This document shows, piece by piece, positions 1,152-49,553 of a stretch of 64,000 nucleotides of DNA; position 1 is the stretch's first letter; the number at the start of each line of letters is the position of its first letter. The position numbers and the translations under genes are program-made. The notes beneath the pieces are model-generated. The model ran no database searches and was not told the origin of the DNA. It worked only from the letters and a program-made list of their open reading frames with translations. The DNA comes from Candidatus Doudnabacteria bacterium (GTDB lineage Bacteria > Patescibacteriota > Doudnabacteria > UBA920). The DNA lies in the NCBI GenBank assembly GCA_003151625.1, contig PLYC01000007.1, positions 2,929-66,928 on the forward strand, in the 5' to 3' direction.

Positions 1152-1180
1152 ATAGTGGTACAAGTACCACTATATTTTTT
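1152..1180 (+). terminator. Rho-independent terminator
   Basis: Hairpin atagtggtac-aa-gtaccactat followed by attttttatt. Confidence 0.6.
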
Positions 1181-1182
1181 AT

Positions 1183-1328
1183 TCGCGACGTAGGCGAGAC
1201 AAAGTAATGCCTTAAGGTATTACTTTGCGAGCCGAGGAGCTAAGAAAGGTTTAATACCTCGAGGCTTGCCGCGAATTTACAGAGAGGTCTTGCAGTAATA
1301 CCCCGTTGCTTACGGCGGGGGAACCTTT
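1183..1328 (+). promoter_or_regulatory. Conserved structured leader element, copy 1
   Basis: Layout: GCGACGTAGGCGAGA, then a hairpin, then CGAGCCGAGGAGC ... AGGTTTAATACCTC ... GCAGTAATACC ... GAACCTTTATG. It ends exactly at the start codon of 1329..2351. Same architecture as 5046-5200 (minus strand) and 12992-13257. Confidence 0.55.
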
Positions 1329-2351
1329 ATGTCCACAGAAACCAAAAATAAAATTTATCCACGAATTATTACGGGAATTATATTATTGGCCGTCGGGGTT
1401 ATTATAGGCAGATATATTCCCCAACAGTCGCCATCGCCCGATGTAAACCAAAAAAATTTATCTGCCGACGTCCGGGCTGGCGGGGGTAAATATACCAACC
1501 CTCTATTGGATTGTGACCAAAGCCAGGCAGTTTTTGTGGAATTGGCGCCCTTTAAAGATAAGGTCAACAGCCAAATAAGCGATTTAGAAAAAGACCAGGA
1601 TATTTCCAATATTTCAGTTTACTTCCGCGATATGAATAACGGCCCCTGGTTTGGTATTAGCAGTTCGGCGACTTTTTCCCCGGCAAGTCTGTTAAAGGTG
1701 CCTTTGGCCATAGCTTACTATAAGTTAAACGAGCAGTCGCCCGGAGTGCTTGCTCAAACTATAACCTACACGGGACCCGACAGCAGCTGGCCGAACATTA
1801 CCCAAACCATTCCGCCCAAAGAACTGCTTACCGTCGGACAAGCTTACTCAATGGATGATTTAATTAAGCGTATGCTGTCGTACTCCGACAACACCGCCTA
1901 CTACCTTTTATTTTCCAATATTAAACAAACGGATTTACAGTCGGTCTACAACGATTTTAACCTCCAGCTTAACGGTCCGGGTTCGGCGGACGACTCAACA
2001 GTAACTGTGCGTGGTTATTCCAGTTTTTTTAGGATTTTATTCAACGCCTCTTATTTAAATCGTTCAGATTCCGAAAAAGTATTGTCATATTTGGCTGACT
2101 CCGAATTTATGGATGGCTTGGCTGCCGGTGTTCCTAGTAATGTACCAATAGCCCATAAATTCGGCGAACGGGAAACAACCGACAAAAAGCCCGTGGAATT
2201 TCATGATTGCGGCATAGTTTATTATCCGCAGCATCCTTATTTACTTTGCGTTATGACGCAGGGCAGTGACATTGTCAAACAAACGAATGCCATCAAGCAA
2301 ATTTCTTCCACGGTCTATAATCAGGTAAACAGCCAAAACCCGGGGAATTAA
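1329..2351 (+). CDS. Class A beta-lactamase-like serine hydrolase (PBP/beta-lactamase fold), N-terminal membrane anchor
   Basis: Motifs in class-A order: FSPASLLK (SxxK), YSDNTAYY (SDN), HKFGE (KTG-like). N-terminal TM helix. Confidence 0.6.
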   Translation: MSTETKNKIYPRIITGIILLAVGVIIGRYIPQQSPSPDVNQKNLSADVRAGGGKYTNPLLDCDQSQAVFVELAPFKDKVNSQISDLEKDQDISNISVYFRDMNNGPWFGISSSATFSPASLLKVPLAIAYYKLNEQSPGVLAQTITYTGPDSSWPNITQTIPPKELLTVGQAYSMDDLIKRMLSYSDNTAYYLLFSNIKQTDLQSVYNDFNLQLNGPGSADDSTVTVRGYSSFFRILFNASYLNRSDSEKVLSYLADSEFMDGLAAGVPSNVPIAHKFGERETTDKKPVEFHDCGIVYYPQHPYLLCVMTQGSDIVKQTNAIKQISSTVYNQVNSQNPGN

Positions 2352-4997: not shown

Positions 4998-5045
4998 AAT
5001 TATGTGTTTAAGGACTTACCTATTAACTGTCCAGACGATAAAGAA

Positions 5046-5200
5046 ATAAAGGTTCGCTCTCTACAAAACCACGAGGTATTACTGCGCGAGTTATAGACTG
5101 CTATCGCAGTCGCCCGTTGGCTGGATGAGGTATCGAACCTGTATTGGCTCCTCGGCTCGCAAAGTAATCCTTAAGCTTACTTTGTCTCGCTCTACGTCGC
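5046..5200 (-). promoter_or_regulatory. Conserved structured leader element, copy 2 (minus strand)
   Basis: Minus-strand reading: GCGACGTAGAGCGAGA, then hairpin caaagtaagcttaaggattactttg, then CGAGCCGAGGAGC ... CAGGTTCGATACCTC ... GCAGTAATACCTCG ... GAGCGAACCTTTATT. It sits approx 45 nt upstream of the peptidase start at 4997. Confidence 0.55.
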
Positions 5201-5230
5201 TAATAAAAAGCCCTTGCTCTAGCAAGGGCT
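5201..5230 (-). terminator. Rho-independent terminator for the 5237..5344 minus-strand small ORF
   Basis: Hairpin agcccttgctagagcaagggct followed by TTTTTATT on the minus strand. Confidence 0.5.
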
Positions 5231-8036: not shown

Positions 8037-8305
8037 TTATTTTACTTGTTTTAGTTTTTGGCGCGATTGTCGGAATTATTGCCTTTGCGGTTAAGGGTTC
8101 CGGTTATGGGTTGTGGTGGGACATAATGCTGGGGATTGTCGGGTCTATTATTGCGAGTTTCGTTATGACAGCCGCTTACATTTTAAACCGTTTTGGCAGG
8201 GCAGATGTTATAGGGTTTAATTGGTACAGTATGGTTATTGGGACAATTGGCGCTCTTACGGTAATTTACGGCGCTTGGCTTTATAATAGAGCAAATTTAA
8301 TATAA
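8033..8305 (+). CDS. GlsB/YeaQ/YmgE-family transglycosylase-associated small membrane protein
   Basis: ATGA overlap with the upstream gene. GIVGSIIASFVM ... GFNWYSMVIGTIGA pattern. Confidence 0.6.
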   Translation: MIILLVLVFGAIVGIIAFAVKGSGYGLWWDIMLGIVGSIIASFVMTAAYILNRFGRADVIGFNWYSMVIGTIGALTVIYGAWLYNRANLI

Positions 8306-8306
8306 A

Positions 8307-8396
8307 TAGGACTTACGCACTTGGTCAAGCCCTTGTGGTTTGAGGCAACAATATATAGAGTTTCTATCATTTTTGCCTCAAACGCGTAAGTCCTAA
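8307..8396. repeat. Internally deleted copy of the GGACTTACGCG-TIR MITE
   Basis: taggacttacgc ... gtttgaggcaa...ttgcctcaaacgcgtaagtccta. Retains the 3' hairpin module of the full copies. Confidence 0.6.
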
Positions 8397-8450
8397 TAAA
8401 AATAATTTTTAAACGGTTTAATTATACGATTAAACCTAAAAAGGAGATAT

Positions 8451-9369: not shown

Positions 9370-10032
9370 CTATTTAAGCAAGCTTTTTAAGTTGGCAATT
9401 TTACCGTCCGTAATATCCCATTCGTAAATGTCTGCGTTGGCAATATCTTTGTCCGTGTCCAGTCCTCTATAAATTCTGGGAATGTCGGGGAAGTGGAAAA
9501 GCAATAATCGGATAACACCATTGTGGGTAATAATGCCCACATTTTGTTTGTCGTGGTTGGAAATAATATCTAAAATCGCGCTTATGGATCTTTGCCTGAC
9601 ATCCTCCACGCTTTCCCCGCCAAAAGGGCGGTAGTCATAGCTTTGCATGGCTTCGCGTTCGCGGTTATCGGGCAAGAGCCTGTCCCATTCCTCATGGTTT
9701 TTGCCGCTCAAACTCCCAAAGTCGCGCTCGCGTAATCGAAAATCGTGAAAGACCGGTATGGGTTCCTTCAAACTTTTGTTTATTAGCGCGGCTGTTTCCT
9801 CGGCCCTAAGCAGGTAAGAAGTAAACAATACATCTAAATCTAAAACTTCAACAAATTTTGCGATTTTTTGGATCTGCAAAACTCCCTGAGTGTCCAGGTA
9901 GTCGTTAATTTGTACACCTTGCCTAATTTTTTGTTTATTACTTATGGTCTCTCCATGGCGAATAAAGTAGAGAGTGGTGGAGCTTCTAATTTTCATTGAG
10001 GGTAGTTTAGAGTCTCGGAATTTAGAACTCAT
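9370..10032 (-). CDS. Histidine phosphatase family protein (phosphoglycerate-mutase-like)
   Basis: YFIRHGET catalytic RHG motif with branch-1 histidine phosphatase architecture. Hairpin tagtgtcaaaggtgacctttgacacta abuts the stop. Confidence 0.65.
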   Translation of the reverse strand: MSSKFRDSKLPSMKIRSSTTLYFIRHGETISNKQKIRQGVQINDYLDTQGVLQIQKIAKFVEVLDLDVLFTSYLLRAEETAALINKSLKEPIPVFHDFRLRERDFGSLSGKNHEEWDRLLPDNREREAMQSYDYRPFGGESVEDVRQRSISAILDIISNHDKQNVGIITHNGVIRLLLFHFPDIPRIYRGLDTDKDIANADIYEWDITDGKIANLKSLLK

Positions 10033-10049
10033 TTTAAAAATAATTTGTA

Positions 10050-10146
10050 GACGAAATTTCAGGATTTTGAGCGGATTGGCTCTTAATAAATTTTGACGTT
10101 TAGCCAGAGCTAAGCGGAAAAATTTTTAAGGCCAAGACGCCAAAAT
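10050..10146 (+). repeat. About 90-nt intergenic repeat, copy A (possible small RNA)
   Basis: ggattttgagcggattggctcttaataaattttgacgtttagccagagctaagcggaaaaatttttaaggccaagacgccaaaat is approx 90% identical to 19628-19733 in the same orientation. Contains ttagc-caga-gctaa hairpin. Confidence 0.55.
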
Positions 10147-11570: not shown

Positions 11571-11625
11571 ATATTTGTTTGAGTATTAGCGATATTTACA
11601 AATATCAGCCAATATCTTAATTACT

Positions 11626-11799
11626 TAGGACTTACGCGCTTGGCCGAGTATGAGGCATTTTGTGAGGATTTTTGGAGGCGTAGTTTGACTACGTCGGCAA
11701 AAACCGCAGCAAAATAACGAAGTAATCGGCCAAGCCCCTGCGGTTTGAGGCAACAAGATATAATTTTTGTTCATTTTTGCCTCAAACGCGTAAGTCCTA
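11626..11799. repeat. Full-length (approx 175 nt) MITE with TIR TAGGACTTACGCG
   Basis: Termini taggacttacgcg / cgcgtaagtccta. Internal hairpins cttggccga/tcggccaag, cgtagtttgactacg, gtttgaggcaa/ttgcctcaaac. Near-identical inverted copy at 20600-20774. Confidence 0.7.
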
Positions 11800-11834
11800 T
11801 GTCTGTTAATTTAATTTCTAATATTTATATTATA

Positions 11835-12439: not shown

Positions 12440-12874
12440 TTAATATCCCAATTTCTTAATTTCCTTTTTAATTTCTCTTTTTTGTATATACTCTCGTTTA
12501 TCTGCCTTTTTTCTCGCTTTGCCTAAGCCTATCCTCATTTTTATCAATCCGCGATTACCCAAAAAAATATCCAGGGGAATTACTACCAACCCTTTTTCTT
12601 TTCCGAGCAATTTGTTTATTTCCGATTTGTTTAAAAGAAGTTGTCGGGTTTGGGTCGGCTGGTATTTTTCATCGGGCGCGTACTTGTAAGGCCCAATATG
12701 GCAATTAATTAAACTGGCCCCCCTGGCCGACACGGTTACATAAGCCCCGGCCAAAGAAACATTGCCGCCTTTAACGGATTTTACTTCTGCCCCGCTCAAT
12801 ACCAAACCGGCAGTAAAGTTTTCTTTAATATCGTAATCAAACCTTGCTCTCTTATTGTCCGCAAAAATTTTCAT
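12440..12874 (-). CDS. smpB: SsrA-binding protein SmpB
   Basis: NKRARFDYDIKENFTAGLVLSGAEVKS...GNVSLAGAY, with a Lys/Arg-rich C-tail typical of SmpB. Confidence 0.9.
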   Translation of the reverse strand: MKIFADNKRARFDYDIKENFTAGLVLSGAEVKSVKGGNVSLAGAYVTVSARGASLINCHIGPYKYAPDEKYQPTQTRQLLLNKSEINKLLGKEKGLVVIPLDIFLGNRGLIKMRIGLGKARKKADKREYIQKREIKKEIKKLGY

Positions 12875-12950
12875 ATCCGGTGTTTAATCTAATATATATT
12901 GTACCACCATTTATACTCTTGTCTATAAGCAAATTTTGACTTAAAATATA

Positions 12951-12988
12951 AGTGGAGAAAATTCTCGGCCGAGAAAATCATCCACTTA
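12951..12988. repeat. Palindromic hairpin of the AAGTGGA..TTC.CGGCCG.GAA..TCCACTT family
   Basis: aagtggagaaaattctcggccgagaaaatcatccactt. A near-identical hairpin at 13811-13848 brackets the leader element plus paaX-like gene. Confidence 0.5.
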
Positions 12989-12991
12989 TTA

Positions 12992-13257
12992 GCGACGTAG
13001 AGCGAGAGAAATGATATGCAGCATATCATTTCCGAGCCGACCTATTCAACTCCGCTCAAGGCCCCGAGTGCAGATCGAGGGGGAGCTTCCGCCAAAGGCG
13101 GATCCTCCTCCCTTCGAGGGTCTGAGGACCCCTCAGGGTCTCGAACGACCGGCGGAAATACAGGTTCAATACTTCGTCCCGCCGACGGCGGAACTGCGAA
13201 GTGCAGGCAGTTCATTGCACTAATACCTCGCAGCTCTGCGGATAGCGAACCTTTATT
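12992..13257 (+). promoter_or_regulatory. Conserved structured leader element, copy 3, carrying a nested approx 110-nt GC-rich multi-hairpin insertion
   Basis: GCGACGTAGAGCGAGA, then hairpin gaaatgatatgcagcatatcatttc, then CGAGCCGACC ... AATACAGGTTCAATACTTCG ... GCACTAATACCTCG ... GCGAACCTTTATT. The first 86 codons of predicted ORF 13016..13795 are translation of this element. Confidence 0.5.
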
Positions 13258-13273
13258 AAATAAGCAACATTTT

Positions 13274-13795
13274 ATGCTGGAAGATTACAATCTTGCTGAC
13301 TCCATTTTGGCCTTTTTTTCCGAGACGCTGAATTTATTGCCGAGGCCTTTGGAAATGCCTTACCAATGGGTTAAACGTAACAAAGGGATGAATTATAGGA
13401 GTTACTACGATTCCGTGCAGGGCTTAAAGCGTCGCGGGGCGGTAAAATTGACAAAAAAGCGGGATAAAACATTCATCCAGTTAACGGAAAAAGGTTTATT
13501 GGATGTTTTACTGCTGAAAGCGGGCGTGAGCAGAGAAAGGGTCTGGGATGGGAAGTGGAGAGTGTGTATTTTTGACATTCCGGAAGAAGCTCACTTACAG
13601 CGGGACTATTTTCGCCGCCTGCTTAAGCAGTACGGTTTTTATAAATTGCAGGCCAGTGTTTTTGTGCACCCGTTTACATTGAACCGAGAGGCAATAGCAT
13701 ACTTAAGTAAAACAGGTCTGAATAAATATATTCGTTTTTTAAAAGTTGAAGAAATGGACAATGATGAGGATTTAAAGAAGTTTTTTAACCTATGA
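13274..13795 (+). CDS. PaaX-like (PaaX C-terminal domain) putative transcriptional regulator
   Basis: RERVWDGKWRVCIFDIPEEAHLQRDYFRRLLKQYGFYKLQASVFVHPF matches the PaaX_C consensus. Start reassigned to in-frame ATG at 13274. Confidence 0.5.
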   Translation: MLEDYNLADSILAFFSETLNLLPRPLEMPYQWVKRNKGMNYRSYYDSVQGLKRRGAVKLTKKRDKTFIQLTEKGLLDVLLLKAGVSRERVWDGKWRVCIFDIPEEAHLQRDYFRRLLKQYGFYKLQASVFVHPFTLNREAIAYLSKTGLNKYIRFLKVEEMDNDEDLKKFFNL

Positions 13796-13810
13796 ATGAA
13801 TAGATAGAAA

Positions 13811-13848
13811 AGTGGATAAATTTCACGGCCGTGAAATTTACCCACTTC
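13811..13848. terminator. Palindromic hairpin (same family as 12951 and 37763) acting as terminator
   Basis: agtggataaatttcacggccgtgaaatttacccact. Confidence 0.5.
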
Positions 13849-13936
13849 GTAATTTTTTTAAAATCCGGTATTTTGGAATTTTTAGATTTTTGATTTTGGT
13901 GAAACAAACGATTTTGTGTTATAATGCAGGTATTAT

Positions 13937-15706
13937 ATGCCAAGTGAAACATCTAAAAATTTTATAAACCACCTTTTGTCATCGGCTTTGTCCGGGCTCA
14001 AGCTGACTTCCTATTTGGACGTTTTAGATATTACGCCCCCATCCAATCCTGATTTTGGCGATTATTCCAGCAATGCGGCTTTAATTTTGTCAAAAAAACT
14101 AAAAATTAACCCTAAAGAAATCGCCGGGAAAATTGTTGACGCCATAAATAATATAGATTTAGAAGGCAAACTGGAATCGGTTACCGAACAGGGCGGGTTT
14201 ATTAACTTTAAACTTTCACAAAAATTTTTGCTTAATAATCTTGGTACTATAATTGACCAACGGGACTTGTACGGATGTTCGGTGTTGGGTGAAGGGAAAA
14301 CTGTAGTTGTCGAGTATTTCCAAAATAACGTAGCTAAGCCGCCTCACGTAGGGCACCTGCGTTCGTCCGTAATTGGCGATTGTCTTTTAAGAGTTTTTAA
14401 ATCGCAAGGCTACAAAACTATTTCCGATACTCACATTGGTGACTGGGGCGTCCAGTTCGGCATTTTGCTTTACGCGTTTAAGACAATGAAGCCGGATATG
14501 GAAGTTTTGGAAAAAGACCCGATTAACGAGTTAAATAAACTTTATGTAGCCATGTCCGCAAAAATAGAAGCCCAAGCCGAGCTTCGGGATTTAGCCAAAG
14601 CGGAATTTAAGAAGCTGGAAGACGGAGATGAGCAGAACCGCAAACTCTGGCAGTTGTTTGTGGACGAATCCTTAAAAGATTTTGAACGCTACCGGATTTT
14701 GCTTGGAGTCTTGCCATTTGATTATAATTTGGGAGAAAGTTTTTACGAAAAACATATGCCGGAAGTTTTGGCGGAATTTCAGGAAAAGAAACTTATAACA
14801 AAAGGCGAAACAGGGGAGCTTTATATTGATTTGGAAAGCTTCGGTCTTGGCCGCTGTATTTTGGTAAAAAGCGACGGAGCGACCACTTACCATTTGCGGG
14901 ATTTTGCCACTTACCTTTACCGACGCAAACAGTTTAATTTTTTAAAAAATCTGTACATTGTAGACAATCGTCAGTCGCACCATTTTAAACAGCTATTTAA
15001 GTCGCTCGAACTTGCAGGCTATCCGGCCGAAAAAGACAGTACCCATATTGATTTGGGATTTATGAGTTTGCCCGAAGGTGCTATTTCCACGCGCAAAGGC
15101 ACAACAATTAGTCTGGAGAATTTAATTACCGAGGCCAACAAGCGCGCTTTAAAAATTATTGAAGACAAGAATCCGGATTTGGAAAATAAAGAAGCGGTCT
15201 CTAAGCAAGTCGCGCTGGCGGCCATAAAATATTTTGATTTATCACATAATCGTAAAACAGAAATAATCTTTACTTGGGACAACGCTTTGTCGTTTGAGGG
15301 CAATACAGGGCCGTATTTGCAGTACACGCACGCGAGAATTCATGGAATATTGCGTAAATCGCGGAATAATACGGAACTTAACGCGGAAAATGCGGAACGT
15401 GGTTTTCCGCGCCTTTCCGCGTCAGATTCCGCGTCTTTCCGCGACACCGAACTCTCCGTTCTTCGCAAACTCATCCAATTCCCCGAAGTCGTTACCCAAG
15501 TCTCCCAGGACTATTTCCCCAACAACCTCTGTAATTATTTATTTGAACTTTCCCAAACCGTTAACTCTTTTTATCAGGAAGTTCCCGTCCTAGCCGAAAC
15601 CGACGAAACCCTAAAATCCTTCCGCCTAAATTTAATTACCGCCACCGCGCAAGTTATAAAAAATGGGCTTTATCTGTTGGGAATAGAAGCGCCGGAGGAA
15701 ATGTGA
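13937..15706 (+). CDS. argS: Arginyl-tRNA synthetase
   Basis: PHVGHLRS (HIGH-class motif), ArgRS N-terminal domain, DALR anticodon-binding C-terminal with YTHARIHGILRK. Contains the in-frame repeat insertion at 15358-15443. Confidence 0.9.
   Translation: MPSETSKNFINHLLSSALSGLKLTSYLDVLDITPPSNPDFGDYSSNAALILSKKLKINPKEIAGKIVDAINNIDLEGKLESVTEQGGFINFKLSQKFLLNNLGTIIDQRDLYGCSVLGEGKTVVVEYFQNNVAKPPHVGHLRSSVIGDCLLRVFKSQGYKTISDTHIGDWGVQFGILLYAFKTMKPDMEVLEKDPINELNKLYVAMSAKIEAQAELRDLAKAEFKKLEDGDEQNRKLWQLFVDESLKDFERYRILLGVLPFDYNLGESFYEKHMPEVLAEFQEKKLITKGETGELYIDLESFGLGRCILVKSDGATTYHLRDFATYLYRRKQFNFLKNLYIVDNRQSHHFKQLFKSLELAGYPAEKDSTHIDLGFMSLPEGAISTRKGTTISLENLITEANKRALKIIEDKNPDLENKEAVSKQVALAAIKYFDLSHNRKTEIIFTWDNALSFEGNTGPYLQYTHARIHGILRKSRNNTELNAENAERGFPRLSASDSASFRDTELSVLRKLIQFPEVVTQVSQDYFPNNLCNYLFELSQTVNSFYQEVPVLAETDETLKSFRLNLITATAQVIKNGLYLLGIEAPEEM
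15358..15443. repeat. In-frame palindromic CGCGGA-repeat insertion inside argS
   Basis: cgcggaataatacggaacttaacgcggaaaatgcggaacg followed by four TTCCGCG units (ttttccgcgcctttccgcgtcagattccgcgtctttccgcg). The first 40 nt are approx 88% identical to a segment of ileS (17486-17527). Encodes SRNNTELNAENAERGFPRLSASDSASFRD between conserved ArgRS blocks. Confidence 0.6.
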
Positions 15707-19603: not shown

Positions 19604-19627
19604 AAGCTACCTCAAAATTAGCTTTTG

Positions 19628-19733
19628 AGGAGAAATTGCGGAATTTTGAGCGGATTGGTTCTTAACAAATTTTGACGTTTAGCCGGAGCTAAGCGGAAAA
19701 ATTTTTAAGACCAAGGCGCCAAAATTACGCGAT
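19628..19733 (+). repeat. About 90-nt intergenic repeat, copy B (possible small RNA)
   Basis: ggaattttgagcggattggttcttaacaaattttgacgtttagccggagctaagcggaaaaatttttaagaccaaggcgccaaaatt. Approx 90% identical to 10050-10146. Confidence 0.55.
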
Positions 19734-19840: not shown

Positions 19841-20593
19841 ATGGATAATGAAATCGATTCGATTATTCCCGAAGACGGCCTAAAGAACCAGCCCCAGGTT
19901 AAGCCAGCCGAGCCAAAAAAAGCTGTTGCCCCAAAGACTATAAAGCCTGTTAAACCCTTGGTTGAAGGCATAAATTCGCCAAAAAATACCCAGGACGTAA
20001 TTTTGGTAAAGAATAATTTAAGCCAAAAAGAAAAAGATCTGCTCACTGAATCACCGTCCTCAAATCAAAGCGCAAACAAGCCGGAACCCAGGCTTATGCC
20101 CGAATCGGTTTCTTTTTCAATAAATAAAAAGAGCCATCATATTGGCAGATGGCTGTTAATTTTTGTGGTGTTATTAATTTTAGTGGCCAGCGGCTATGAG
20201 TTTTATGTTTGGAAGTTGCAGAACGGACAAACTCCAATTGTGGGGCATTATCATCCCGCTGTGCAGGCAACAGAACCATTTCCGTTAGCAGGTGGAACCG
20301 TGCCAACATCTACCTTAATTACGGCAATATCCAGTTCGACACCTTTGGGGATTGCATCCACAACCCCAACATCGACTCCTCCAGCCGAGCCGGTTTTACA
20401 GGTTAAAATATCATCCACGCCCACCGGATTTTTAAACGTTAGAAGCACGCCTTCGCCCTCGGGTAAAGTTGTAACCCAGGTTCACCCCGGAGAGATTTAC
20501 ACTTACACCAAAACACAAAGCGGCTGGTATGAAATAACCTATAGCGGGCTAAATCAAGGATGGGTTAGCGGGCAGTATGTGGTTAAACAATAA
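19841..20593 (+). CDS. Membrane-anchored protein with C-terminal bacterial SH3 (SH3b) domain
   Basis: Central TM (WLLIFVVLLILVASGY), STPT linker, and C-terminal GFLNVRSTPSPSGKVVTQVHPGEIYTY...GWYEITYSGLNQGWVSGQYV = SH3_3 pattern. Confidence 0.55.
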   Translation: MDNEIDSIIPEDGLKNQPQVKPAEPKKAVAPKTIKPVKPLVEGINSPKNTQDVILVKNNLSQKEKDLLTESPSSNQSANKPEPRLMPESVSFSINKKSHHIGRWLLIFVVLLILVASGYEFYVWKLQNGQTPIVGHYHPAVQATEPFPLAGGTVPTSTLITAISSSTPLGIASTTPTSTPPAEPVLQVKISSTPTGFLNVRSTPSPSGKVVTQVHPGEIYTYTKTQSGWYEITYSGLNQGWVSGQYVVKQ

Positions 20594-20599
20594 CAAGAT

Positions 20600-20774
20600 T
20601 AGGACTTACGCGTTTGAGGCAAAAATGAACAAAAATTATATCTTGTTGCCTCAAACCACAGGGGGCTTGGCCGATTACTTCGTTATTTTGCTGCGGTTTT
20701 TGTCGACGTAGTCAAACTACGTCTCCAAAAATCCTCGCAAAATGCCTCGTACTCGGCCAATCGCGTAAGTCCTA
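20600..20774. repeat. Full-length MITE copy, inverted relative to 11626-11799
   Basis: Near-exact reverse complement of the 11626 element including all three internal hairpins. Confidence 0.7.
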
Positions 20775-20786
20775 AGATTATAAATT

Positions 20787-24305: not shown

Positions 24306-24424
24306 GTAGGACTTACGCGTCCTAAATTCATTAAAATCCACTTTGTTGCACTTATGCCCGGCCGAGCATAAGTGCAACAAGACAAAATTTGGATAAAAAA
24401 TCAGTTTTTTGTTATAATTTACAC

Positions 24425-37762: not shown

Positions 37763-37800
37763 CGACCTGTAAAATTCACGGCCGTGAATTTTACAGGTCG
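37763..37800. terminator. Palindromic hairpin of the TTCACGGCCGTGAA family
   Basis: cgacctgtaaaattcacggccgtgaattttacaggtcg. Centre identical to 13811 hairpin, outer stem different (covariation). Confidence 0.5.
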
Positions 37801-37914
37801 TGTAATATTTATAAACCCTGTTAGAAACTATTTGGCTAAAGGACAGGCCAGAAATTTTTAAGAAATAAGCGCGTAAATCCTAAGAAGAATAAAAAAATAG
37901 TCATTCCTAACTGG

Positions 37915-38772
37915 ATGAAGAAAATTCTCGGGGTAATTATTATATTAATTTTGGCTGTAGCCACCTGGCACTACCGTTTTTTCGAGCAGAAATTTATCCA
38001 AAAACTACCGGAGCTAGCCAAGGCGCCTTCTGTGGCTAATATTGTCCAGGATATTTCCACGCCGCCGCCTTTGGTTGGACAAAGGAATAATCCAAACTCC
38101 AGCTTAACTAGAGCCGGCGTAATTACATGGACGAATACTAACCGTGAACAAAACGGCGACCTTTTGCCGCTCACGGAAAATTCACAACTGGACAAGGCGG
38201 CGCAATTAAAGCTGGCTGATATGTTTAAACAACAGTATTTTGAACATATAAATCCGCAGGGAGTTGGGCCGGCCGATTTGGCCAAACAGGCCGGATATAA
38301 TTTTATTTCTGAAGGAGAAAATTTAGCGTTGGGAAATTTTACCGACGACCAAGATCTTCTCACAGCCTGGATGAACAGCCCCGGCCACAGAGCCAACATT
38401 TTAAACGTTAAATACCAGGAAATTGGCGTGGCCGTTGGTCAGGGTCTGTATGAAGGGCATAAAACTTGGCTGGCGGTTCAGGAATTCGGCAAACCGGCCA
38501 GCAGTTGCCCAACCATAGATTTAAATTTAAAAGCGCAGGTCAATAGCTTGCAGGCGGATGTGAATAAATTAAGCCCCCAACTGGCTTCGTTAAAAAGTCA
38601 GATAGATTCCGCTTCCCCCAGAACCCAAAGCGATTATAACTCTTATAACCAAATTGTCGCTCAGTACAACAGTATGGTGGGAATTTACAACAATAAAGTG
38701 GATATTCTAAAATTAGTCACCGGCCAATATAACAGCGAGGTTAAGGCGTACAATGCGTGCCTGGGTAGTTAG
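37915..38772 (+). CDS. CAP/SCP/PR-1 domain secreted protein with C-terminal coiled coil
   Basis: Signal/TM. CAP motifs GHYTQ-like GHRANILN and HFEHINPQG region. C-terminal Q/N-rich heptad repeats. Confidence 0.6.
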   Translation: MKKILGVIIILILAVATWHYRFFEQKFIQKLPELAKAPSVANIVQDISTPPPLVGQRNNPNSSLTRAGVITWTNTNREQNGDLLPLTENSQLDKAAQLKLADMFKQQYFEHINPQGVGPADLAKQAGYNFISEGENLALGNFTDDQDLLTAWMNSPGHRANILNVKYQEIGVAVGQGLYEGHKTWLAVQEFGKPASSCPTIDLNLKAQVNSLQADVNKLSPQLASLKSQIDSASPRTQSDYNSYNQIVAQYNSMVGIYNNKVDILKLVTGQYNSEVKAYNACLGS

Positions 38773-42565: not shown

Positions 42566-43849
42566 ATGTGTGGTATGGCAATAAAAGGAAAAAAAGTTTT
42601 AATAGCGCAAAACCCTCTCTCCCGCTCGGCAACCTCGCGGCACTCTCCCCCAACCGCCTTCGCCAAGGCTCCGGCGGTCAAGAAGGGGGAGAGGGAAAAG
42701 GTTCTAATCGCTCTATCCGGCGGAATAGATTCCGCGGTTTCGGCTTATCTGCTGGTAAAAAAAGGCTACCAAGTAGAAGCGGCTTTTATGAAGAATTGGT
42801 CTTCAACCGAAGGCCTTTTGAAAAACGAATGCCCGTGGCTGGTGGACAGGCAGGACGCTTTGCGTGTGGCCCCGTTTTTGCGCATTCCGCTGCACACTTT
42901 GGATTTTGAAAAGCAATACCAAAAAAACGTAATGGAATATTTTTTTAACGAATACAAAAAAGGCCGTACGCCCAACCCGGACGTAATGTGCAACAAGGAA
43001 ATTAAATTTAAACTATTGTATAACTGGGCAATGAAAAACGGGTTTGATTATTTAGCGACCGGACACTACGCACGAATAAAGTTTCAGACTAGCCAAAATC
43101 ACGGCCGTGATTTAAGCAAGTATACACTTTCGCGAAGTGCGGATGAATTTAAGGATCAGACTTACTTTATCTACAATATACAAACCGAGCAGCTCCCGCA
43201 TATTTTGTTTCCTATTGGCGGAATGAAAAAGACCGCGGTAAGAACGCTTGCCAGAGAGCTAAAACTGCCCAACGCGGAAAAAAAGGAAAGTATGGGCTTG
43301 TGCTTTGTAGGGAAGATAAGATTGAAGGATTTTTTGGAGCAGAGGTTAAAGCCAAAAGCGGGGCCGATTGTGTTTATGCAATCATCGATACCCTCATCTG
43401 TCGTTCAGATGCATTCACGACATCTTCCCCCAAAGGGGGAAGGGGGAGACACTGTCCTCGGTCAACATCAAGGCCTCTATAACTATACCATTGGCCAGCG
43501 ACAGGGGATAAAAGTCGGCGGGGGCGGCCCTTATTACGTGGTGAAAAAAGATTTAAAGACCAACACGTTGTATGTGACCAATAATCCCGATGATGAAAAT
43601 TTGCTGACCAGGGAAATCCAAATCCACAGCATAAATTGGATTAGCCCGGGCTACCAACTAAAAACCATAAACTATAAACTAACGGGCCGTTACCGCCACC
43701 AGGGCGAACTTGTACCGCTGACCATAAAGCAAATAAAAAAAGATCTCTACAGTGTTACGTTTGTCAAACCCCAAAAAGCTGTTGCCTCGGGACAAAGTTT
43801 GGTATTATATAAAGGTAAGGAATGCTTAGGCGGCGGAGTAATAGTATAA
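42566..43849 (+). CDS. mnmA: tRNA-specific 2-thiouridylase MnmA
   Basis: PP-loop SGGIDS. MnmA C-terminal blocks YTIGQRQG. Carries two GC-rich palindromic in-frame insertions (approx 42609-42700 and 43380-43455). Alternative start at 42575. Confidence 0.8.
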   Translation: MCGMAIKGKKVLIAQNPLSRSATSRHSPPTAFAKAPAVKKGEREKVLIALSGGIDSAVSAYLLVKKGYQVEAAFMKNWSSTEGLLKNECPWLVDRQDALRVAPFLRIPLHTLDFEKQYQKNVMEYFFNEYKKGRTPNPDVMCNKEIKFKLLYNWAMKNGFDYLATGHYARIKFQTSQNHGRDLSKYTLSRSADEFKDQTYFIYNIQTEQLPHILFPIGGMKKTAVRTLARELKLPNAEKKESMGLCFVGKIRLKDFLEQRLKPKAGPIVFMQSSIPSSVVQMHSRHLPPKGEGGDTVLGQHQGLYNYTIGQRQGIKVGGGGPYYVVKKDLKTNTLYVTNNPDDENLLTREIQIHSINWISPGYQLKTINYKLTGRYRHQGELVPLTIKQIKKDLYSVTFVKPQKAVASGQSLVLYKGKECLGGGVIV

Positions 43850-49479: not shown

Positions 49480-49553
49480 TGCCCGGTAGCCAAGCGGTAA
49501 GGCAGAGGACTCTGAATCCTCCATCGTAGGTTCGAATCCTACCCGGGCAGCCA
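49480..49553 (+). tRNA. tRNA-Gln (anticodon CTG)
   Basis: TGCCCGG...CCGGGCA acceptor. AGCCAAGCGGTAAGGCA D-arm, identical to the E. coli tRNA-Gln pattern. Anticodon loop CTCTGAA. T-arm GTAGG-TTCGAAT-CCTAC. Discriminator G plus CCA. Confidence 0.9.

Follow-up and report, generated by a model that had tools for sequence, protein, structure and literature searches.

The window analysed here is a 64,000-nt stretch of AT-rich DNA (42.9% GC) from a genome of the Patescibacteria, or Candidate Phyla Radiation (CPR), whose nearest relatives are Doudnabacteria. It carries, between smpB and argS, a gene for a PaaX-like protein of 173 amino acids (aa), here called mini-PaaX, and this gene is enclosed by two matching 38-bp palindromes, H1 upstream and H2 downstream. 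We show that palindrome, gene and palindrome form a genuine unit that recurs across the gene family. We propose that H1 and H2 are probably a matched pair of operators (O1 and O2) bound by the encoded protein, which would act as an autoregulated repressor. Along the window the order is a PLD-like gene and smpB on the minus strand, H1, a structured 275-nt element that we term the leader, the mini-PaaX gene and H2, then argS on the plus strand and ileS (Table 1).

The likeness of H1 and H2 goes beyond chance. The two agree at 31 of 38 positions (81.6%; BLAST E 1.7e-4 within the window), and both the outer 6-7 nt (AAGTGGA / CCACTT) and the CGGCCG core are identical, while the change at positions +/-4 is itself symmetric (T..A versus A..T). 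An earlier note, made from the sequence of the window alone, had recognized these palindromes as hairpins at 12951-12988 and 13811-13848; they are real, but each lies one base earlier, and 'near-identical' overstated a match of 82%. The 14-mer core TTCNCGGCCGNGAA occurs exactly three times in the window, in H1, in H2 and, at 37775, in an orphan palindrome, H3, against no occurrence in 100 shuffles; a 14-mer at 43098, inside a coding region, was treated as chance. Six long zero-loop palindromes that are symmetric through their centre were found in the window and none in 20 shuffles, and the predicted single-strand fold of each palindrome lies between -16 and -26 kcal/mol (z -5.4 to -7.8).

This pairing is a property of the family. 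We fetched 80 metagenomic loci encoding homologues and scored the upstream against the downstream flank by local alignment at 74 of them, taking the 99th percentile of between-locus scores as the threshold for pairing. The mean score was 29.2 within a locus and 13.8 +/- 3.3 between loci, and 47 of the 74 reached the threshold. Of the unit that the earlier note suggested seeking in relatives, the palindrome-gene-palindrome part is found there. The segment held in common is a palindrome whose arms are specific to the locus yet match within it and whose core is nearly invariant (CGGCCG 38, CGATCG 21). Its 34-36 bp comprise two 13-nt arms and, between them, an 8-bp core, RCG[G/A][C/T]CGY; the identity of the two copies does not fall below 0.84 at positions 14-17, the outermost ones, and drops to 0.4-0.6 from position 18, and positions 9-10 are A/T in over 90% of cases. 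Palindromes centred on CGGCCG or CGATCG number 52 in 268 kb at homologous loci compared with 5 in 666 kb of other CPR DNA, an enrichment of about 26-fold. The median upstream site is centred 43 nt before the ATG and the median downstream site 25 nt after the stop codon. The window departs from this geometry on its upstream side, where the H1 centre lies 305 nt before the ATG, making it the most distant upstream site in the set, and the centre-to-centre distance from H1 to H2 is 860 bp against a family median of 606 bp.

The arrangement is retained in related genomes. In L116, a Doudnabacteria locus whose protein is 55% identical to that of the window, the minus-strand smpB, the gene and argS stand in the same order without the leader, and on either side of the gene lies a 38-nt palindrome; the two resemble each other and differ wholly in sequence from H1 and H2 (ATACATTAAT...). 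The same gene order is found in L118, the proteins of the two loci being 55-57% identical to that of the window. Across the family the downstream neighbours are housekeeping genes, including those for ArgRS (4 loci), CysRS (4), Trp/TyrRS, MetRS and Leu/Ile/ValRS, as well as TsaD (3 loci), ComEC (3), S6, HPF, FtsZ, SecA and LigA. A class I aminoacyl-tRNA synthetase gene lies directly downstream in about one third of the co-directional cases (L116-L197), and the synthetase neighbours are of class I only. About one third of the next genes (about 10 of 31 loci) converge on the mini-PaaX gene and the palindrome pair is still there; the pair therefore belongs to the mini-PaaX gene itself, and the possibility that the downstream palindrome is solely the operator of the neighbouring gene was rejected. 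A transfer-messenger RNA (tmRNA) beside smpB was also ruled out, as ARAGORN and Rfam report just two tRNAs in the window.

The encoded protein is PaaX-like, as the earlier note had supposed. It matches PF20803 (PaaX_M, the Cas2-like central domain of PaaX) with E 1.4e-19 and 70.4 bits against a Pfam cut-off of 24. The NCBIfam PaaX model TIGR02277 matches weakly (34.9 bits, cut-off 264.55) and the Cas2 model TIGR01573 marginally (27.1 bits, cut-off 24.5, over residues 96-136 only); PADLOC likewise gives a Cas2 match (E 9.8e-7), and FDIP...QxSVF motifs are present. Profile matches to winged-helix proteins are weak. The AlphaFold2 model (predicted local distance difference test score, pLDDT, 80.6) has a winged helix at residues 7-82, built from three helices and a beta wing, and then a ferredoxin-like domain. 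Its top Foldseek match in the PDB is E. coli PaaX (8a39, E 8e-6), the next being a PaaX-like protein, winged-helix repressors (the F-93 winged helix and MarR proteins) and Cas2. Pfam detected no PaaX_C domain, the protein stopping at residue 173. Because PaaX_M, the winged helix and the PaaX fold match are all present and the effector domain is not, we describe the protein as a mini-PaaX lacking the C-terminal effector domain. Exact-sequence look-ups of the window proteins returned no match. A 259-aa database entry (P0001), which spans window positions 13016-13795, is 100% identical to the mini-PaaX protein; since its residues 1-86 are a translation of the leader RNA, these extra N-terminal residues are probably a gene-calling artefact and 13274 is probably the true start.

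Several properties of the palindromes favour a two-fold symmetric site in double-stranded DNA over a terminator or an RNA hairpin, namely their central symmetry, the lack of strand bias among wobble mismatches, the rarity of T-rich tails and the promoters embedded in them. Of 80 strong palindromes, 67 (84%) keep their symmetry across the centre, where a free 4-nt loop would do so in about 1 case in 16. Mismatches compatible with G-U wobble are as frequent in the sense as in the antisense orientation (13 versus 13), and T-rich tails come after only 5 of the 47 downstream copies. Among the 47 upstream copies, 15 contain a -35/-10 pair in the orientation of the gene, compared with 5.0 +/- 1.9 in shuffles, 4 on the reverse strand and 5 in downstream copies, and the apparent degeneracy of upstream copies coincides with embedded TTGACA / TATAAT boxes (for example in L127, L135 and L147). 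In the window, a promoter-like site found by consensus scan stops 3 nt before H1, and its predicted transcription start is the 5' edge of H1.

The earlier note had allowed that the hairpins might be ordinary terminators whose resemblance is coincidental. H2 does lie just past a stop codon, a T run begins 5 nt after its stem, and hairpins are common in AT-rich intergenic DNA. Coincidence is nonetheless scarcely credible given the match within 47 of 74 homologous loci and the three exact copies of the core where none was expected. The palindromes also differ from intrinsic terminators in the rarity of the U tract, in the absence of a plus-strand terminator call at H2 and in the position of H1, which is not at the 3' end of any gene and lies upstream of its own gene, facing the divergent smpB.

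A role in RNA could instead be envisaged in which hairpins at the 5' and 3' ends of the mRNA govern stability, termination or processing. The Cas2-like domain might bind or cleave them, which would make the autoregulation post-transcriptional. Very stable hairpins are predicted for all copies if they are transcribed, the downstream copy occupies a terminator-like position and is usually the more perfect of the two, and the stem of H3 is perfect despite different outer arms. Some Cas2-family proteins are ribonucleases. We regard this explanation as unlikely, because symmetry through the centre is not needed for an RNA loop, wobble-type mismatches and T-rich tails show the patterns given above, copies within one locus keep their sequence and not merely their structure, and many upstream copies hold the promoter itself and would be only partly transcribed.

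In the operator model that we favour, a mini-PaaX dimer would bind H1 and H2 through the winged helix, the Cas2-like domain serving for dimerization. Because the upstream site would overlap or abut the gene's own promoter, binding there would repress the gene, in the manner of E. coli PaaX at Px. The downstream site, right after the stop codon, would bound the unit, and in the window it shares sequence with the -35 box of a putative argS promoter. It may be a second cooperative site, a roadblock or a control site for the next gene. The palindrome-gene-palindrome layout would be the ancestral state, passed down vertically at smpB / gene / argS. The leader, a separate structured RNA, would later have been placed between O1 and the start codon, shifting O1 from about -40 to -305, and this element would in turn have gained a dispersed GC-rich twin-hairpin module and two further inserts.

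Other observations weigh against operators of this kind. The palindrome extends over all 34-38 bp and takes in the inner arms, whereas the N27 spacer of the E. coli PaaX site is unconstrained; this full-length palindromy therefore indicates selection on more than two outer half-sites. Perfect symmetry in the orphan H3, whose outer arms are different, may likewise reflect selection on structure. The model does not account for the downstream copy, which is present even with a convergent next gene, and a clear embedded promoter is seen in only about one third of upstream copies. No helical phasing was found in the spacing of the sites (Rayleigh p 0.2-0.8), and the similarity of the arms follows the DNA-binding domain (partial correlation 0.108) no more closely than it follows the Cas2-like domain (0.102).

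The earlier note had read the locus as a transposed cassette of hairpin, leader, regulator gene and hairpin. The palindrome-gene-palindrome part of this description holds, whereas transposition is not supported. If the palindromes were the ends of a transposable or hairpin-bounded element carrying a regulator gene, as in IS200/IS605 or REP-RAYT systems, one could account for the many genomic contexts of the gene family, for flank similarity that reaches 50-140 nt past the palindrome in L122, L125, L171 and L184, and for the orphan palindromes (H3, a further orphan H4, and sites in L046, L052, L102 and L110). The layout also recalls REP/RAYT and IS200/IS605 in having two similar hairpin-forming repeats around a gene and a few extra copies elsewhere. 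We nevertheless consider a mobile cassette rather improbable. The order smpB / gene / argS is conserved at 55-57% protein identity, the unit occupying the same place in L116 and L118, and relatives carry it without the leader. No target duplication was found at the outer edges of the hairpins, where the earlier note had advised looking; TTAAAAT runs near these edges were rejected as such a duplication, as they lie at unequal distances and coincide with predicted -10 boxes. The gene is present as a single copy, with no second mini-PaaX gene in the 64 kb. Its product, the sole protein of the unit, combines a winged helix with a Cas2-like domain and has no transposase or recombinase domain detectable by Pfam, NCBIfam or fold search, and no gene for either was seen among the neighbours examined. 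In contrast to REP/RAYT and IS200/IS605, there is no HUH/Y1 transposase, the repeats are perfect palindromes through their centre, and genomic copies are very few. Because genomic context follows the protein phylogeny only partly, the gene may on rare occasions have relocated.

Site-specific recombination at lox/FRT-like or Xer-module-like 13-8-13 sites, which would make the gene excisable or invertible, seems to us quite improbable as well. The geometry agrees, with 13-nt arms and an 8-bp core in a unit of 34-36 bp, a single gene lies between two matched copies, and orphan single copies could be excision scars. However, the symmetric core, unlike that of lox or FRT, gives the site no direction, the neighbours examined showed no recombinase gene, gene order is conserved, and upstream copies decay into promoter boxes, which would not be tolerable for a recombination site. 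Very improbable, finally, is the proposal that the palindromes are substrates of the Cas2-like domain, so that repeat, cas2-like gene and repeat constitute a self-contained nuclease or recombination module. If true, it would connect Cas2, PaaX regulators and palindromic repeats in a way not seen before, with the orphans as scars or targets.

The orphan palindromes deserve separate mention. The earlier note had drawn attention to a third family member at 37763 with a different outer stem, and H3 does have different outer arms, its inner 25 nt being 92% identical to H2. H4 lies upstream of a cupin / mannose-6-phosphate isomerase-like gene, and its arms are of unrelated sequence. No mini-PaaX gene lies near H3 or H4, which could be regulon sites, sites of other paralogues or scars of lost genes. 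In L052, from a Saccharibacteria metagenome-assembled genome, a 38-bp CGGCCG-centred palindrome (1264-1301) stands 13 nt upstream of a leader element (1176-1251, minus strand), the same order as H1 and the leader in the window; no mini-PaaX gene was detected in that locus.

The leader is a distinct element. All three copies described in the earlier note were recovered, and copy 3, next to H1, consists of a 5' module with stems P1 and P2 followed by a long-range stem, AATACAGGTTC / GAACCTTTATT. A pattern of its conserved blocks matched at least 115 genome stretches, of which about 90 among the matches listed are from Patescibacteria of many lineages. An alignment of 83 sequences has the invariant core GCGACGUAG(A)GCGAGA ... 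GAGCCGAGGA, also written GCGACGUAGAGCGAGA...GAGCCGAGGA, and the stems P1 (UUAUUAGC / GCUAAUA), P2 (a long hairpin) and P3 (long-range, AAUAUAGGU / ACCUAUAUU). These stems covary strongly: pairing reaches 93.6% in P1 and P2, whereas shuffles give 71.3% and slid controls 36-54%, and there are 245 double-change cells compared with 52. Rfam gave no relevant match, at its gathering score or at E <= 10, for any of the three window copies or for the canonical one in L008. Likenesses to a T-box, a glycine riboswitch, domain V of a group II intron and a tRNA T-arm were set aside; for those of these families that Rfam includes, no model hit supports them. Our literature searches found no paper on the element and nothing relevant on its exact core sequence or on riboswitches, ribozymes or structured RNAs of Patescibacteria. 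We conclude that it is a widespread, undescribed structured RNA element of many Patescibacteria lineages. Its 5' module also occurs in tandem copies within about 80 nt (L078:133-280, minus strand, and L007:1091-1250).

Contrary to the earlier note, the leader is not a part of the palindrome-gene-palindrome unit. It is absent from L116 and L118, and it is independent of the unit because it lies near only 2 of 82 mini-PaaX loci, in other positions. The name may itself be a misnomer. In 38% of the elements the following gene lies on the opposite strand, which makes a strict 5' untranslated region doubtful; the element may instead be intergenic or a gene for a small RNA. A terminator-like hairpin with a U run often abuts its 5' side.

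Within copy 3 the insertion of about 110 nt and 65% GC noted earlier is real, with 116 nt and 64.7% GC. At its junction the family consensus reads ...GAGCCGA-GGAGC-UAAU-ACAGG.... The first part, insert A, is followed by a joining segment, GGGGAGCT, and then by a twin-hairpin module that belongs to a dispersed GC-rich 34-nt palindrome (TTCCGCCARAGGCGGATCCGCCTCYGGCGGAA, centre GGATCC) found alone or in leaders (also at L086:1479-1511). Uninterrupted copies of the module occupy the same leader position, in the P1 stem, in two Doudnabacteria (L082:6512-6550 and L101:7935-7976). The earlier description of a repeat inserted into a repeat is correct, because the module stands alone elsewhere in the window and recurs at the same position of the leader. 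Insert C, within the module, is a third level of nesting. Unrelated insertions are present at the same junction in L045, L053, L085, L100, L108 and L153, and this junction is a site tolerant of expansions.

Table 1. Coordinates of the features discussed, in window positions.
Feature	Position	Strand	Remarks
Leader copy 1	1176-1330	+	without insertion; 72.7 bits; runs to the ATG of a beta-lactamase-family gene
Stand-alone twin-hairpin module TTTCCGCCAAAGGCGGATCCGCCTCCGGCGGAAA	4138-4171		centre GGATCC; same module as in leader copy 3
Leader copy 2	5045-5209	-	without insertion; 72.0 bits; upstream of a Peptidase_C39_2 gene
smpB	12440-12874	-	divergent from the mini-PaaX gene, with H1 between
Putative sigma-70-like promoter	12919-12947	+	-35 TTGTCT, 17-nt spacer, -10 TAAAAT; consensus scan, pattern match only
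H1 AAGTGGAGAAAATTCTCGGCCGAGAAAATCATCCACTT	12950-12987		upstream 38-bp dyad-symmetric palindrome, the more degenerate copy; proposed operator O1
Leader copy 3	12983-13257	+	covariance model R1 50.8 bits, E 4.6e-14, at 12983-13050
Nested GC-rich insertion in leader copy 3	13041-13156	+	116 nt, 64.7% GC against 42.9% in the window; absent from copies 1 and 2
Insert A	13041-13079	+	first part of the insertion, followed by the joining segment
Twin-hairpin module in leader copy 3	13088-13156	+	TCCGCCAAAGGCGGA-TCCTCCTC...CGGCGGA; inside the 3' strand of P1
Insert C	13111-13149	+	39 nt, hairpin-forming; interrupts the second hairpin of the module, from comparison with the uninterrupted L082, L101 and 4138-4171 copies and from the fold
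Mini-PaaX gene	13274-13795	+	173 aa; winged helix and Cas2-like PaaX_M, without the PaaX C-terminal domain
H2 AAGTGGATAAATTTCACGGCCGTGAAATTTACCCACTT	13810-13847		downstream near-perfect palindrome; begins 14 nt past the stop codon; proposed operator O2
Putative argS sigma-70-like promoter	13837-13864	+	-35 TTTACC in the right arm of H2, -10 TAAAAT; consensus scan, pattern match only
argS	13937-15706	+	downstream of H2
H4	24343-24380		orphan 38-bp palindrome, CGGCCG centre; between an EamA transporter gene and a cupin gene
H3	37763-37800		orphan perfect 38-bp palindrome; 115 nt upstream of a CAP-domain gene (37915-38772)

Other repeats were observed in the window. A 103-nt pair, 88% identical and unrelated to the leader, lies at 10044-10146 and 19623-19725, one copy after a divergent gene start at 10032 and the other after the end of ileS. 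A composite motif (TAGGACTTACGCG, a GTTTGAGGCAA...TTGCCTCAAAC hairpin and CGCGTAAGTCCTA) is intergenic at 8298-8407, 11617-11811, 20591-20786 and 37866-37894. Between 49525 and 55852, repeat families sharing GTTCSAAC...AAGGCCAGCCAA start from the 3' end of tRNA-Gln (49480-49553) and recur 5-6 times over 6 kb; these may be repeated gene ends or tRNA-derived fragments.

Regulation of the unusual cell cycle of Patescibacteria is virtually unknown, according to a 2024 review (PMC11665869). A winged-helix/Cas2-like protein of 170-180 aa together with a matched pair of 34-36-bp sites constitutes a simple and widespread putative regulatory module that can be recognized by sequence alone. If binding occurs as proposed, operator arms could be read directly from genomes and the targets of each paralogue predicted through orphan sites, and the sites would be ready parts for inducible expression in bacteria that are hard to engineer. 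The enrichment of class I aminoacyl-tRNA synthetase genes downstream of mini-PaaX genes is worth testing. The leader, too, invites experiments, being a structured RNA that is deeply conserved, occurs in multiple copies, has an invariant core and belongs to no Rfam family.

Among known systems, the module resembles Cas2 in the TIGR01573 match and motifs of its C-terminal domain and in flanking repeats of the length of CRISPR repeats (34-36 bp). It differs in the fusion of this domain to a winged helix and in having only two repeats, which enclose a gene rather than spacers. No cas genes were seen among the neighbours in about 50 homologous loci, cas1 and CRISPR arrays not having been searched for directly, and a general repeat scan showed no array-like repeats in the 20 largest of at least 60 direct-repeat families of the window.

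The repressor CI of phage lambda provides a parallel in layout. Its gene is bracketed by its own operator sets, OL and OR, one of which lies over its promoter, and it is autoregulated, possibly with looping. Here too a repressor gene would stand between two of its own putative operators, but the protein belongs to an unrelated family, the sites are about 600 bp apart as against 2.3 kb, each side has a single site, and no helical phasing was found.

A close relative is PaaX of E. coli and Pseudomonas. Mini-PaaX departs from it in having no C-terminal effector-binding domain, as the TIGR02277 score reflects; its putative site is palindromic throughout, with a conserved CG-rich core; a matched second site right after the stop codon is not described for PaaX; and its neighbours are housekeeping genes, with no phenylacetate pathway genes nearby. 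The two proteins share the winged helix and the Cas2-like middle domain, as seen in the PF20803 and 8a39 matches, and the long inverted-repeat site of PaaX, 39 bp in E. coli, is similar in overall length to the putative site here, 34-38 bp. The E. coli site is TGATTC(N27)GAATCA, and PaaX bound there represses its own promoter Px by blocking RNA polymerase (PMC9493321); H2 reads AAGTGG-N26-CCACTT, and the geometry of the sites and their overlap with promoters are consistent with autorepression by promoter occlusion of the same kind.

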